Positions 13,647-17,924 of a stretch of 19,806 nt of DNA are shown in pieces. The position numbers were made by a program, and so were the translations under genes. The DNA is from a virus. Taxonomy: Duplodnaviria > Heunggongvirae > Uroviricota > Caudoviricetes. The stretch is from the IMG/VR virus record IMGVR_UViG_2711768067_000013, positions 1 to 19,806 of that record. The stretch is one strand, 5' to 3'. How positions within the stretch are numbered: the first letter of the stretch is position 1; each line of letters starts with the position of its first letter. A model generated the notes under the pieces. That model was given only the letters and a program-made list of their open reading frames with translations. It searched no databases and was not told the DNA's origin.

Positions 13647-13951
13647 TATAAGAATCCGCTTCTAATTCAAAGCATTACCCCATCAACACTGCGCTCACAC
13701 GTCCCACCACATCAAAACATGTAAAGCCTTGCAAGCCATTGCGAGGCCTTATGTGTCTCAGTTTTGTCCCACCTTGTATTACGACTTACATAGCCAATGA
13801 AGATAAACGTGACGACAAACGGCGCAGCAGTCTTCTTTTCCTTCATACTTTCCCCACCCAGCATGCATACCTTTATGCCATAACTGAAGTTTATGTCTGT
13901 TATGAGCGAAAAGCAGACATTACACTAAATTATTTAGGTTTACTTTTATCA

Positions 13952-14824
13952 TTACATTTCTAATGCTTTTTCTCTGCTAATTGATCCTTCACCATTGCAG
14001 GTTCTGCAATCTAATTTTATATTCCTGCAGTCAGGACAAGTAAATTTTTCATAATTAGAAAGATTCACCTTTGCAGCAATATATCTTTTTACGGATCCCA
14101 TTCCATTACAGATCGGACAATCTTCTCCCGCTAAACTGCCTTTTCCATTACATAAAGGGCAAGTTACAGTGGATATCACTTCATTTTCATTTTCATAAAT
14201 AAAATTGTTGAAATTTTGGGCGTTTATTGTGCTTAGTTGAACTTTTTCAATTTTTTTTATGTGATGTTCAAAATACTTTTTAATTGCCTTCTTAAGATCC
14301 TCTTTAGACGATTTCCATTGTTCTGGTGAGATCCTAATCGATTGAAATCCTTCGTTACTAGTTATTACTGCATCACGCTTGTAAGTAGACTTAATTTTAC
14401 TTTCCACATAATGAGCTATGTGGCCATCATACTCGATGCCAATAGCAGCAATCTCAACCAAATCTTGACCAATCCATCTATTTAGTCTAAGGACAAGGTC
14501 TATTGCCCAAGGCTGGGCTTTTGGGTTTATATTGCCAACCTTATACTGAGGCTCGATATAAACAATATGTCCGTTTGGGAATTGACCTTTCAGAGTTATT
14601 CGTCGTGGTGAATTTTGAAAACTATCGATTTCCAATGGACTAAACTGAGATATGAGGCCGGCAATTACCTCTATCTCAGCCTGAGATGTTTTTTCCACTC
14701 CTTGTAAACTAATAAGACCGATAGCTACTTGACGGTTAGTGGCTGGCTCAATCCTTTTAAATAGTTTCTTCTGATTATTACTAAAATTATTTTTGATAAC
14801 TTCAAGTGTTTCATCTAGTTCCAT
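13952..14824 (-). CDS. PD-(D/E)xK-type nuclease-like domain fused to a C-terminal DnaJ-type zinc finger (four CxxCxGxG-like repeats)
   Basis: Track ORF starts at GTG 14833; an ATG lies at 14824. Candidate nuclease motif D...IGIEYDGHIAHY (DUF559/Vsr-like). C-terminus has CPLCNGKGS, CPICNGMGS, CPDCRN and CRTCNGEGS. AT-rich gene. Confidence 0.65.
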   Translation of the reverse strand: MELDETLEVIKNNFSNNQKKLFKRIEPATNRQVAIGLISLQGVEKTSQAEIEVIAGLISQFSPLEIDSFQNSPRRITLKGQFPNGHIVYIEPQYKVGNINPKAQPWAIDLVLRLNRWIGQDLVEIAAIGIEYDGHIAHYVESKIKSTYKRDAVITSNEGFQSIRISPEQWKSSKEDLKKAIKKYFEHHIKKIEKVQLSTINAQNFNNFIYENENEVISTVTCPLCNGKGSLAGEDCPICNGMGSVKRYIAAKVNLSNYEKFTCPDCRNIKLDCRTCNGEGSISREKALEM

Positions 14825-14928
14825 CTCACCCACTCTATAAACTGATTATCCATATAAACTACATTATCATTTTTAACTGCTCAACATAGATTAACATAGC
14901 GCGATGCTAACAGTGTCAACTCCTGGCA

Positions 14929-14950
14929 CAGGGCTGTTGTTGCAGCCCTG
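14929..14950. other. Perfect 8-bp palindrome with 6-nt spacer (CAGGGCTG ttgttg CAGCCCTG) between the recombinase stop and the nuclease-ZnF gene
   Basis: Read directly; no flanking T-tract on either strand, so probably not a simple terminator. Confidence 0.5.
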
Positions 14951-14956
14951 ACAACC

Positions 14957-15559
14957 TTAGACTTCAATCGATTCAGAGATCTCTAACACATCATCTACTT
15001 CAATACCCAGATAACGGACTGTGCTTTCCAGTTTCTTATGGCCCAACAGAAGTTGGATCACCCGAAGATTCTTGGTTTTCTTGTAGATCAGGTAAGGTTT
15101 TGTTCTTCTCATGGAATGAGTGCTGTAAAGCGAATCTTCGAGACCAAGCTTTTCTACCCACCCATGAAAAATTCGGTTGTATTGCCGGGTAGATATGAGC
15201 TGATTAGTTCCGACCAGAAACCGAAACAAGAAGTCTTTACTATGCAAATTGCCAAGCATTATCAATGCAGCAACAGCTTCTCTTGTCCCTTTGGTTATCT
15301 CAAACTGCACAGGGCTACCGGTTTTCTGTTGCAGCACCGTAGCTCTGCTTGAAGCAGAGCTACCATATGCAACATCAGATACTTTGAGTTTGACCAGATC
15401 ACAGCCTCGTAGCTTACTGTCCAGGGCCATATCGAACTGAGCTAAATCGCGCGTTTTATCTTCCAGTTCAAGCCGGATTCGGATCCCCCAGATATGAGAT
15501 ATCTGAAGTGGTCTTTTTTGGCCGATGATACGGTCTTTGTTCCACGGTGACGTGTTCAT
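14957..15559 (-). CDS. Short tyrosine recombinase (~200 aa, catalytic domain only, FimB/FimE-like size)
   Basis: Track ORF starts at TTG 15613; the ATG at 15559 has AGGAGA upstream. Catalytic signatures: LRGCDL (Arg), HSMRRT (His-x-x-Arg), LLGH, and TVRYL (Tyr). No N-terminal arm-binding domain. Confidence 0.8.
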   Translation of the reverse strand: MNTSPWNKDRIIGQKRPLQISHIWGIRIRLELEDKTRDLAQFDMALDSKLRGCDLVKLKVSDVAYGSSASSRATVLQQKTGSPVQFEITKGTREAVAALIMLGNLHSKDFLFRFLVGTNQLISTRQYNRIFHGWVEKLGLEDSLYSTHSMRRTKPYLIYKKTKNLRVIQLLLGHKKLESTVRYLGIEVDDVLEISESIEV

Positions 15560-15595
15560 ACTCAAATCTCCTGCAATGTGGGAGATTTGAGTATG
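15557..15595. promoter_or_regulatory. Perfect 15-bp inverted repeat with 9-bp spacer (CATACTCAAATCTCC tgcaatgtg GGAGATTTGAGTATG) covering the recombinase Shine-Dalgarno and start codon
   Basis: Arms 15557-15571 and 15581-15595 are exact reverse complements. In the minus-strand mRNA the hairpin would sequester GGAG and AUG. Confidence 0.5.
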
Positions 15596-15765
15596 GTTGT
15601 CCCTTATGAGCAAATCGCAGACGTAACATCAAGTTCATAGCTACCCTGGAGCACCTTATTATCCTGTATAACGATAAGTTGGGAAGCCAGTGGCCTCACA
15701 GTGTCCCCAAGATGGTGGTGTCTCTGCACCAAAGATGCGCTAGTTCAAATGTTAGTAAATATAAT

Positions 15766-16677
15766 TTATATGTAATCAGGTAGTGAATTCAAAGCCATCA
15801 CTCTTTCTCTTTCTTTTTCTGTCATTTCTCTCATAACAATTTGAGATAGCGCTAATGTTATCTCCTTTGTTTTATTGAAGGCTTCTTTGGTATATGTTTT
15901 CCTTCCATACTCAAGTTCATTAAATGTCCCCATAATCCATTTGAGATAGAATAATGGGATGGCTAGATCACTTATATCCTGCCATCTCGTAATCGCTTTA
16001 TATTCATTCCAAAAATAATCCTCAAAATGCTTATCACAATCACCTTTACACGCATAATAAACCGCTATCACCTCATTTGGTTTGTCATCGTGTATGATCT
16101 CTGCATTGCACACAATGCCATCATAATTTTCTTCATGATGGTTTTCTATTAAGTCCTTTCCACAACGATCACATTTTATAGGTAAGTACTTATCAAAAAT
16201 CAAATGCTTGGGTTTTATTTTTTTATAGCTCTCAGGAAAGTATCTAAGGAGTAGTTTTGAGTAACCAATTCTGACTAAGTGATTTTCAATTAATTTACCA
16301 TCAAAGAATCGAAAGTCCTTTATTTTTCCATTCTCTTTTAATTGCGTCATTCTTGAATTTAAACCACTACTTGGCAGTGTTGAGTAAAATCCAATAAATC
16401 CGTCGGCATTGAATCCATCAATACGTTCTTGTATATTAATCTCATCCTTTTCTGAAACTGATTTTTTACTTGTTGCATAATGTTTACAGCTAACAAGCCA
16501 ACGAAATTTATATTTATTTAACTGACCTTGCAATTGCTCTGTGATTAAAAGATCTTTACCTCCATCTGCACCTCTATCTGGCGCGGATTCAATATAAAAG
16601 CCAAGTTCTTCAAGAAAATCACGGGCAAATGACTCCCAGGCTTCACCGTCACTATCAATTTCAGTAAAGTTAATCAT
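15766..16677 (-). CDS. Mrr-like (type IV restriction endonuclease catalytic fold) N-terminal domain fused to a Cys/His-rich C-terminal domain (303 aa)
   Basis: ATG at 16677 with GGGAG 9 nt upstream. N-terminal motifs RGADGGKDLLI and WLVSCKHY fit the Mrr_cat pattern. The C-terminus has CDRCGKD, CNAEI and CKGDCDKH. AT-rich gene. Confidence 0.65.
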   Translation of the reverse strand: MINFTEIDSDGEAWESFARDFLEELGFYIESAPDRGADGGKDLLITEQLQGQLNKYKFRWLVSCKHYATSKKSVSEKDEINIQERIDGFNADGFIGFYSTLPSSGLNSRMTQLKENGKIKDFRFFDGKLIENHLVRIGYSKLLLRYFPESYKKIKPKHLIFDKYLPIKCDRCGKDLIENHHEENYDGIVCNAEIIHDDKPNEVIAVYYACKGDCDKHFEDYFWNEYKAITRWQDISDLAIPLFYLKWIMGTFNELEYGRKTYTKEAFNKTKEITLALSQIVMREMTEKERERVMALNSLPDYI

Positions 16678-16925
16678 TTGTTAACTCCCAAGCGTTGAGA
16701 TATTTTTATATCTGTATTGTGGGCTTATTATAAGCGAGTGTAATTATAATATCATACTAACAGACACAACTTCCGCTTCTGGTACATAGCAGACCAGAGA
16801 CACTGGCGTAAAGCCATGGAGGATCGGTGGGAGGAGGTAAAAATCCTCTCATGCAAAAAATACGCAAAATCGATAACAGTTGGAAATCATTCAATACTCG
16901 CACTATCGGAAGTTCACCAGCCAGT

Positions 16926-16958
16926 CGTAGCACGTTCTTGCATACGACGTGGCTACGG
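16926..16958. repeat. Degenerate second copy of the pin terminator hairpin (direct repeat of 17947-17982), flanking the GIY-YIG gene on the left
   Basis: cgtagcacgttcttgcatacgacgtggctacgg aligns with ccgcagcacgatcttcttgcatacgacgtgctacgg, with small indels. Confidence 0.5.
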
Positions 16959-17150
16959 GTTTCGAGACCGCTCCAATCATCAAACGAAACATAAAATTAA
17001 TTCACATTATGAGGAAAAGTATCTTTTTTATACTATGTAAATTCAAAGGCTTAGCCTCATTTCCCCGATGGTTTTCTCAACACTACTGGTTGTGAGCCCT
17101 TGCAATGTTCATTAATATACGTCTCACAAATAATTCATAGATATTGCAAA

Positions 17151-17924
17151 ATGGATATTACTGAGTTTCCTTCTGGAGTAATTGAACACCTTGGCTGGTA
17201 TGTATACCGATTGATTGATCCGAGGGACGGAAGCACCTTCTATGTAGGGAAAGGCAAAGGTAACCGCGTATTTGCCCATATGCGCGGTGAAGTGGCAGCG
17301 ACTGATGATGACGAGTTACTGAGCAACAAGCTAAAGCAAATTAGAGAAATAAGGTTAGCAGGACTTGAGGTTATCCATGTCATCCATCGACACGGAATGA
17401 CTGATGAAAAGACGGCGTACGAAGTTGAAGCAGCACTTATTGATGCCTACCCTGGGTTAACGAATATCATGAATGGTGCTGGCAGCAATGAATTCGGCGC
17501 CGCGCATGTCAAAGAGTTGATAGCAACATATCAACCCGAAACCATAACATTTCATCATAAAGCATTAATGATTTCCGTTAACAGAAGTGCAAAGGATTCA
17601 GAGCTTTATGATGCGGTTCGATTTAGCTGGCGCATTAATGTCTCTCGCGCCAGCCAAGCAGAAGTCATTCTTGCTACTGTAAGGGGGATCGTTCGAGGGG
17701 TTTTCATTGCTGATAAATGGCTCAAATCAACACGTGAAAATTTCCCTACGATGAAATACTGGGACGAGGATCCGGACTTTGAGGCAACACAAAGTTCTCG
17801 CTATGGTTTTGAAGGTCGAGAAGCCCCACCTGAAATAGCAAATCTTTATCTTGGAAAAAAAATACCAGATGAATTAAGAAAAAAAGGAGCTATGTCCCCG
17901 GTCCGTTACTCACCTAATTTTTGA
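17151..17924 (+). CDS. GIY-YIG nuclease-domain protein (~257 aa) with an uncharacterised C-terminal domain
   Basis: Motifs GWYVYRL and [14 protein letters not shown], then [19 protein letters not shown]. The track ORF starts at TTG 17100; the first ATG is at 17151 with a weak RBS. Confidence 0.7.

Follow-up and report, generated by a model that had tools for sequence, protein, structure and literature searches.

Gene Content of the Prophage End

IMG/VR virus record IMGVR_UViG_2711768067_000013 (Caudoviricetes) was analyzed over positions 1 to 19,806, and this whole stretch of 19,806 nucleotides is referred to here as the window. At one end of a prophage it carries a cluster of four genes (g1 to g4), which lies between a 3′ fragment of the threonine tRNA gene thrW and the serine invertase gene pinE (pin). 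It is considered probable, with some reserve, that this prophage-end hotspot is served by an integron-like cassette-exchange platform, accompanied by a backbone gene for the endonuclease PD-T4-3/CMoRE. An initial annotation, made from the sequence alone, had placed here a PD-(D/E)xK protein with a DnaJ zinc finger, a tyrosine recombinase of about 200 aa, an Mrr-like Cys-rich protein and a GIY-YIG protein; coordinates, profile matches and the identity of the thrW fragment confirm the four genes, the tRNA fragment and pin at or near the positions proposed, with the domains proposed. The AT-richness reported for the cluster was likewise recovered, with a GC content of 0.32–0.45 across the cluster against approximately 0.52 in the chromosomal flank. 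The features of the cluster are the following:

13647..13894, no strand: left backbone, conserved prophage backbone left of the cassette array
13895..13918, minus strand: A site, GTCTGCTTTTCGCTCATAACAGAC, junction of the g1 cassette and the left backbone
13952..14833 (PGAP start 14824), minus strand: g1, solitary putative Vsr-like PD-(D/E)xK nuclease, 290–293 aa
14915..14938, plus strand: degenerate B site, GTCAACTCCTGGCACAGGGCTGTT, junction of g1 and the recombinase module
14928–14949: conserved hairpin 3′ of g2, overlapped by the inner arm of the B site at 14915–14938
14957..15559, minus strand: g2, tyrosine recombinase of 200 aa, catalytic domain only
15557..15595, minus strand: start-codon hairpin, a perfect 15-bp hairpin burying the Shine-Dalgarno sequence and AUG of g2
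15599..15622, minus strand: A site, GTCTGCGATTTGCTCATAAGGGAC, junction of the g3 cassette and the recombinase module
15766..16677, minus strand: g3, N-terminal Mrr/MspJI/AspBHI-type PD-(D/E)xK domain and C-terminal Cys4 domain
16771..16794, plus strand: B site, TTCCGCTTCTGGTACATAGCAGAC, junction of the g3 cassette and the right backbone
16795..17150, no strand: right backbone, conserved (from the PGAP annotation of an identical region in strain E275a and BLASTN)
17151..17924, plus strand: g4, GIY-YIG type IV endonuclease PD-T4-3/CMoRE

Short Sites at the Module Boundaries

The sites of this cluster are 24-bp imperfect palindromes of two kinds. A sites follow the consensus GTCCGCTyyTCGCTCAnAGCGGAC, and B sites are of the same kind with the centre TGGCACA where A sites have TCGCTCA; they are built of two inverted arms of 7–9 bp around a centre of 6–10 bp, like a minimal core site of a tyrosine recombinase. 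A sites are oriented as the recombinase gene and B sites in the opposite direction, and the order read along the minus strand is B site, g3, A site, recombinase, B site, g1, A site. BLASTN comparison with related loci (numbered with the prefix L) and with Escherichia coli genomes gave the following map:

Up to 13917: left backbone, matched in L100, L102, L103, L104, L105 and L002
13895–14928: g1, 85% identical to the phage-plasmid L016, with homology starting exactly at 13895
14921–15611 (start at about 14920–14924): recombinase module, 91–95% identical in many E. coli
15607–16794: g3, 90.6% identical to L101
From 16772: right backbone, matched in L100, L102, L104 and L002

All four junctions fall inside 24-bp sites, and the stretches where two homologies overlap (14921–14928 and 15607–15611) are central bases of the sites. 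The left backbone is 95–99% identical in the six loci listed for it regardless of their cargo, and its homology stops at 13908–13921, inside or just beyond the A site. Across 272 kb of enterobacterial loci, 86 sites were found with six mismatches or fewer, against 0–1 in each of 20 shuffles, and with the recombinase gene set on the plus strand the site counts were +A 60 and −B 44 compared with −A 4 and +B 1. Adjacent cassettes are separated by a composite junction of approximately 65 bp (an A site, 17–18 bp and an inverted B site), and the recombinase gene occupies the position of the spacer in this composite. Viral contigs follow the same scheme (B′, cassette, A, recombinase, B′, cassette, A); additionally, a block consisting of the recombinase and HEC-08, 99.5% identical, occurs in two unrelated genomic contexts with B sites at both ends.

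A 38-nt direct repeat (13894–13931 and 15598–15635) was also considered as attL/attR of a two-gene element, a proposal that was superseded by the B sites and composite junctions, which make up a multi-site array. Promoter-like matches in the region were no commoner than in shuffles.

A Recombinase with Only a Catalytic Domain

The g2 protein matches Pfam Phage_integrase (PF00589) with 55.5 bits against a cutoff of 27.1, the domain covering residues 52–202 of a 218-aa open reading frame. Residues R51, K79, H148, R151, H174 and Y183 are conserved at 97% or more among 74 genomes, in which the minimum protein identity is 56%. g2 lacks the N-terminal core-binding domain, for which 200 aa leave no room and which is present in all the “simple” and “complex” tyrosine recombinases of Smyshlyaev et al. 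(2021). Sequence searches found no relative of g2 in the PDB and no PADLOC model for it.

The recombinase family is large and tight: the top 120 database clusters are all 74–94% identical. Protein records of the recombinase include WP_053903522.1 and WP_001305755.1. It is present in 959 of 5,426 complete E. coli genomes (18%), at many chromosomal positions and in 42 plasmid places, and 543 confirmed matching stretches were obtained in species-representative genomes from Enterobacterales to Burkholderiales. It is also carried by 66 viral contigs and 425 plasmids, among the latter an E. coli plasmid of the IncY (P1-type) group. The recombinase module has a constant length of 658–661 bp between an A site on the 5′ side and an inverted B site on the 3′ side, and its conservation begins and ends abruptly when the flanks are compared among E. 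coli genomes. The hairpin over the g2 start (−29 kcal/mol, z −4.5) is maintained from E. coli to Pseudomonas, with compensatory changes preserving it in other genera, and suggests a guard against read-through translation; hairpins over the translation start are known from transposase genes (IS10, IS50). Relatives of the recombinase in Pseudomonas are arranged alike, and the site that flanks their gene in inverted orientation on either side has another sequence, GTCCGCTTCTGGCCGGTTAGCGAC.

Some arrays hold two recombinase modules. In Buttiauxella (L021, 5938–11648) the conserved 5′ leader comes after two sites, those at 5938 and 9794, and in Stutzerimonas chloritidismutans (L047, 5898–10365) there is a second inverted site pair approximately 720 bp apart. 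An inversion switch acting through long inverted repeats of the region was also considered and rejected, the repeats being the start-codon hairpin and chance-level pairs only.

Independence of the Four Genes

The arrangement of all four genes (at least 99.7% identity) occurs in only 8 of the 5,426 complete E. coli genomes, in near-identical loci. By this survey of co-occurrence the four genes are not one system, because they keep company only in near-clonal copies and each is found alone elsewhere. The initial annotation had entertained both possibilities: a single system, which the survey contradicts, and a set of independent restriction-like genes, which it bears out, as homologues of g1 and of g3 occur singly in other places, unaccompanied by one another or by the recombinase. 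It had also failed to recognize the combination as a named system, and no such system was indeed found, but its GIY-YIG member had already been named and was missed. The search with the defence-system models of PADLOC assigned g4 to PD-T4-3, matched g1 over the zinc finger only (model PDC-M01B) and offered no model for g2 or g3.

g4 contains a LEM-3_GIY-YIG domain (E 2.4e-14) and matches the PADLOC PD-T4-3 model PDLC04031 with E 2.7e-140, its residues 18–273 aligning to positions 1–255 of 256 and thus over the full length. In the PDB it matches 9U75 (E 3.7e-172) with 257 of 257 residues aligned and about five substitutions, or approximately 98% identity. On these alignments g4 is PD-T4-3/CMoRE, already named and mechanistically solved. 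CMoRE is the name under which PD-T4-3 was characterized, a single-protein type IV endonuclease degrading DNA with 5-hydroxymethylcytosine (5hmC) or glucosyl-5hmC (PMC12923530, Nat Commun 2026), and PD-T4-3 protects a native host and K-12 against Tevenvirinae (10.1101/2024.12.20.629700). The gene belongs to the backbone beside pin in e14-like prophages and is not part of the cassette array; taken by itself, it is an ordinary gene with a known explanation. Between the flanks that enclose PD-T4-3 here, strain S56 carries a DUF4145 gene instead, and a direct repeat of approximately 27 nt, TCTTGCATACGACGT(G)GCTACGG, flanks PD-T4-3 in the window at 16935–16961 and 17960–17985; in view of the S56 replacement this repeat pair looks like a second, different swap point.

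g1 consists of a helical N-terminal domain, the nuclease and a C-terminal DnaJ-type zinc finger of four CxxC pairs, and its invariant residues are D109, E131, D133 and H138. Its Pfam matches (REase_MTES_1575 and DnaJ_CXXCXGXG) are both below threshold, and a PDB sequence search returned the DnaJ zinc finger only. The match to PDC-M01B covers only the zinc-finger region (residues 179–292 on positions 269–362 of 366), with no full-length match to this profile and no PDC-M01A partner gene beside g1, and the PADLOC candidate system PDC-M01 was rejected on both grounds. The family is small (32 clusters, in Gammaproteobacteria), and its members stand alone in Vibrio cassette arrays, in Pseudomonas aeruginosa and in a P1/P7-like phage-plasmid, where the homologue is flanked by one B and one A site and no recombinase is close by. 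g1 is a candidate single-gene defence cassette. In Vibrio parahaemolyticus (L010–L012) the homologues are members of extended arrays whose genes are small and share a strand (LysE, GNAT, SMI1/SUKH immunity-type); as these arrays resemble the cassettes of chromosomal integrons, one nuclease gene may travel in two different cassette systems.

g3 has an Mrr_cat domain above the Pfam threshold and four invariant cysteines in its C-terminal half; a PDB sequence search gave nothing useful. It is widespread, with 1,358 matches and more than 50% identity across Deltaproteobacteria, Planctomycetes, Bacteroidota and one archaeal metagenome-assembled genome. In the three distant contexts examined its homologues are solitary amid defence-type genes (GmrSD_N, HEPN, KAP NTPase, an NgoFVII restriction–modification system), with no relative of g1 or g2 near them, and in E. 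coli BE2-5 g3 stands alone in another prophage remnant. No methyltransferase adjoins g3 or its homologues in the window, L003, L008 or L101, and in L005 a restriction–modification pair lies 4.5 kb off. A conserved three-gene order suspected at L003, where the g3 homologue is 77% identical, was rejected, as the neighbours of 297 and 162 aa are unrelated to g1 and g2. g3 is regarded as a cassette that may confer type IV or abortive-infection defence.

g1 and g3 are unrelated and self-contained, and most likely they would serve as single-gene defences through modification-dependent or infection-triggered DNA cleavage. This is suggested because both are solitary and, in the contexts examined, without an adjoining methyltransferase, because other cassettes of their platform hold single-gene defences that have been validated, and because their nuclease folds, a putative one in g1, are shared with type IV enzymes (MspJI/AspBHI for g3, AbaSI/PvuRts1I/Vsr for g1). 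Sensing would fall to the C-terminal Cys4 domain of g3 and, in g1, to the helical N-terminal domain together with the DnaJ-type zinc finger.

The Prophage-End Hotspot and Its Setting

The proposal of a prophage-end defence hotspot has held up, given that the cargo of this position varies among E. coli strains while the end sites stay the same. The cargo of other strains includes a GTP pyrophosphokinase, a PD-T4-6-like kinase with a hypothetical gene, an HNH protein with HEC-08, a PD-T7-3-like DUF4145 gene with two hypothetical genes, Ppl (“TrlF”) and a Dcm/type II restriction–modification pair. Taken together, the cassettes of E. coli carry PD-T7-1, PD-T7-5, HEC-08 (twice), the PD-T7-3-like protein, the PD-T4-6-like kinase, Ppl, a toxSAS-like GTP pyrophosphokinase, the HNH protein, ETEC_3214 and a CBS-domain protein. 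In other Enterobacterales, defence-type cassettes (HerA-SIR2, HerA-DUF4297, Lit-type peptidase, DUF4238) occur together with non-defence cargo such as SDRs, MFS transporters, NUDIX, GNAT, LysR regulators and ArsB, and this cargo profile resembles that of integrons.

The cluster is the cargo end of an e14-like prophage (with Mu-type tail and baseplate genes) integrated at thrW, with a second element in tandem beside it. This follows from E275a, in which the same cluster directly adjoins a yagP fragment and is continued by a complete prophage whose baseplate and tail genes are of Mu type. The thrW fragment of the window (13597–13646) is identical over 50 of 50 nt, in direct comparison, to nucleotides 31–76 of K-12 thrW (the 3′ 46 nt) plus 4 nt, and it was not called by ARAGORN or Rfam in a scan of the region because it is partial. 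The features of the setting are:

527–556: second thrW 3′ copy, 30 nt, bounding a separate island integrated in tandem
13597..13646, minus strand: thrW 3′ fragment (tRNA-Thr), att repeat marking the prophage end
17985..18546, minus strand: pinE serine invertase, frameshifted, start of the prophage tail-fibre module

The window starts with a chromosomal fragment, yagP/LysR, on the paoD side. The island of 13 kb (557–13596), bracketed by the two direct thrW 3′ copies and standing in tandem with the prophage, encodes a tyrosine integrase at 612..1976 and a serine recombinase at 11721..12278, its other genes being mostly hypothetical; island and cargo cluster also occur apart, the former in many E. 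coli genomes that lack the cluster and the latter in others that lack the island. On the other side, pinE is split by a frameshift into open reading frames of 90 and 126 aa, as is also annotated at the identical E275a locus, and an intact 184-aa pinE is found in other strains; tail-fibre genes follow it in the window. The right backbone includes a remnant annotated by PGAP as capsid protein (about 16859–16939, minus strand), which is present in most hotspot variants between the cassette array and PD-T4-3.

The initial annotation had also pointed to the position of mcrA beside pinE in e14, correctly so, as the K-12 order is tfaE, stfE, pinE, mcrA and prophage end. PD-T4-3 fills the functional niche of McrA beside pin with an unrelated fold. 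The e14 end of K-12 contains no A or B sites, for which reason mcrA was rejected as a cassette of this platform.

Proposed Cassette Exchange and Alternative Explanations

In the proposed mechanism, the 200-aa recombinase would act on the A and B sites, and like sites in direct orientation would recombine to give an excised circle that could be re-inserted at any like site. In the window, recombination of A with A would yield a circle of the recombinase and g1 (1,704 bp), and that of B with B a circle of g3 and the recombinase (1,856 bp). As the A site on one side of each cassette and the inverted B site on the other have different centres, a pair of crossovers, one in each site, would replace the cassette with no excision step, following the logic of recombinase-mediated cassette exchange. 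The different centres and the fixed orientation suggest that A and B would be heterospecific, that is, would not recombine with each other. The composite of A, spacer and inverted B might also be used as a folded single strand, since it is geometrically attC-like. More tentatively, and at slightly less than an even chance, this platform may be widespread in Proteobacteria: a recombinase with only a catalytic domain, encoded inside a composite of inverted sites, by which prophage ends, P1-like phage-plasmids, plasmids and chromosomes would trade cassettes of one to three genes; many such cassettes would be single-gene defences against phage (PD-T7-1, PD-T7-5, HEC-08, Ppl, and g1 and g3 of the window).

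Several observations weigh against cassette exchange by this recombinase, and some of them favour a different view, considered unlikely here, in which g2 is the remnant of a decaying element, ordinary recombination, whether homologous or illegitimate, produced the mosaic, and the palindromes are shared terminators or regulatory hairpins. Vassallo et al. (2022) remarked that several PD systems have “a nearby integrase gene” and read such genes as signs of decaying elements (PMC9519451). No recombination product was seen, either as a circle junction or as the same array with and without one cassette, and several hotspot variants have sites with no recombinase nearby (L103–L105). The palindromic sites show some compensatory change between their arms (a weak covariation signal, confounded by relatedness), by which the substrate could be a folded strand or the palindromes could serve another role. 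The half-sites beside the recombinase gene are the most degenerate (7 mismatches), and the heterospecificity of A and B is argued from just two features, their centres and their orientation. Additionally, 17 complete E. coli genomes have an “empty” junction (13869|16783), in which the backbones are joined directly and only the right arm of the B site is kept (L106, 730–830; H108, E. coli LD22-1); this junction is unlike a simple product of recombination or integration and may represent an ancestral empty site or a deletion at a microhomology (CATA). The defensive role of g1 and g3 is guilt by association, as PADLOC has no g3 model and matched g1 over the zinc finger only. Against decay, however, the recombinase is intact with all its catalytic residues at 56–95% identity from Enterobacterales to Burkholderiales, its module keeps a constant length and a conserved translational hairpin, and the orientation of the two kinds of site relative to the gene is fixed (104 of 112). 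Moreover, the boundaries in the window and those of six other loci all lie in central bases of the sites, and the sites have no T-run.

The inverted orientation of the sites around the recombinase gene and around each cassette would also suit an invertase similar to FimB/FimE, which would flip itself or a neighbouring segment and so phase-vary the expression of the nucleases. g2 has the size of FimB/FimE and gives faint NCBIfam matches to tyrosine-type DNA invertases, but these reach only 15.5 bits (PRK09871) and 12.3 bits (PRK09870) against cutoffs of about 220, the flanking sites differ in their central bases, and in more than 30 loci A is always 5′ and B always 3′ of the recombinase, with no flipped isoform seen, so that this explanation is held to be very unlikely. 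It is scarcely credible that the four genes, or the three on the minus strand, form one defence or addiction system with the recombinase as a mechanistic component. Their adjacency, the shared strand of three of them and their co-inheritance in the eight near-identical loci would agree with such a system, but each gene is found elsewhere without the others, the recombinase neighbours entirely different genes at the same hotspot, g4 works alone experimentally (PMC12923530; 10.1101/2024.12.20.629700), and a recombination-type site with a break of homology lies between each gene and the next. The suggestion of a recombinase-associated module therefore survives in part: the recombinase is associated with the cargo, but with a 24-bp site at every module boundary it is probably an engine of cassette exchange rather than a component of defence or addiction.

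Implications

The fast movement of single-gene defences among prophages, plasmids and chromosomal islands is only partly explained by integrons, P2/P4 hotspots and homologous exchange, and a small dedicated recombinase with short recognizable sites would provide a concrete, testable mechanism for the turnover of defences. If exchange by this recombinase is true, the remark on a nearby integrase and a decaying element would have to be reread for several PD systems (PMC9519451), and the platform would be a natural counterpart of recombinase-mediated cassette exchange; the integron principle would then have been invented twice, independently. As a tool for discovery the 24-bp sites would be of use as well, given that any gene between A and B becomes a candidate defence or accessory cassette, including g1, g3 and many hypothetical genes. 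Finally, a recombinase of 200 aa with two non-cross-reacting sites of 24 bp might serve genome engineering.

Comparison with Known Systems

PD-T4-3 and the idea of a prophage-end hotspot are already known. For the recombinase family, the sites and the cassette organization, no description was found in the open-access literature, including papers on the classification of tyrosine recombinases, on serine recombinases as markers and on P2/P4 hotspots, and the platform is apparently undescribed, although a prior description is possible. g4 has the GIY-YIG N-terminal domain and the modification-sensing C-terminal domain of PD-T4-3/CMoRE (PMC9519451; PMC12923530; PDB 9U75, 9U7U) and shows no substantive difference from the crystallized CMoRE of O157:H7, so that only the genomic setting is added here. 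g1 and g3 differ from AbaSI/PvuRts1I and MspJI/AspBHI in domain order and sensor domains, since in g3 the nuclease is N-terminal and accompanied by a Cys4 domain and in g1 a DnaJ-type zinc finger replaces the SRA-like domain. The e14 end at pinE-mcrA has the same layout of tail-fibre genes, pin invertase, type IV modification-dependent nuclease and prophage end, with HNH McrA there in place of GIY-YIG CMoRE here, whereas e14 of K-12 lacks the 24-bp sites, the recombinase and the cassettes.

Integrons resemble the present platform in having a tyrosine recombinase beside arrays of cassettes of one to three genes, each bounded by a recombination site, in the junction (an imperfect palindromic composite of approximately 65 bp, with two inverted simple sites around a short spacer) and in their mixed defence and accessory cargo. 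However, the core boxes of attC (GTTRRRY/RYYYAAC) differ from the GTCCGCT/AGCGGAC arms, and unlike IntI, the recombinase described here has 200 aa, no core-binding domain and too short a length for the IntI insertion; among the NCBIfam models g2 matched no integron integrase, the best being a XerA/integron-integrase model with 45 bits against a cutoff of 220. Also unlike integrons, this platform has its recombinase gene within a composite site and flanked by cassettes on either side, its sites are of two kinds that differ in the centre, and its cassettes appear to retain upstream regions of their own.

The pdif modules of Acinetobacter plasmids are similarly gene modules between short sites of alternating orientation, with the same modules in different replicons, but they employ XerC/XerD dif-like sites and the Xer proteins of the host, whereas here the sites are not dif sites and a dedicated recombinase travels with them. 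The dif sequence is GGTGCGCATAA-N6-TTATGTTAAAT, and by inspection the 24-bp sites bear no resemblance to it. In Bacteroidales, the rAID-1 arrays, reportedly described by Ross et al. in 2019, are said to consist of a conserved tyrosine recombinase beside arrays of variable protective genes with intergenic repeats; they differ from this platform in phylum, recombinase family, repeats and cargo (toxin immunity genes there, anti-phage nucleases here). With these differences, the proposed platform is kin to the site-specific gene-cassette platforms represented by integrons, pdif modules and rAID arrays.

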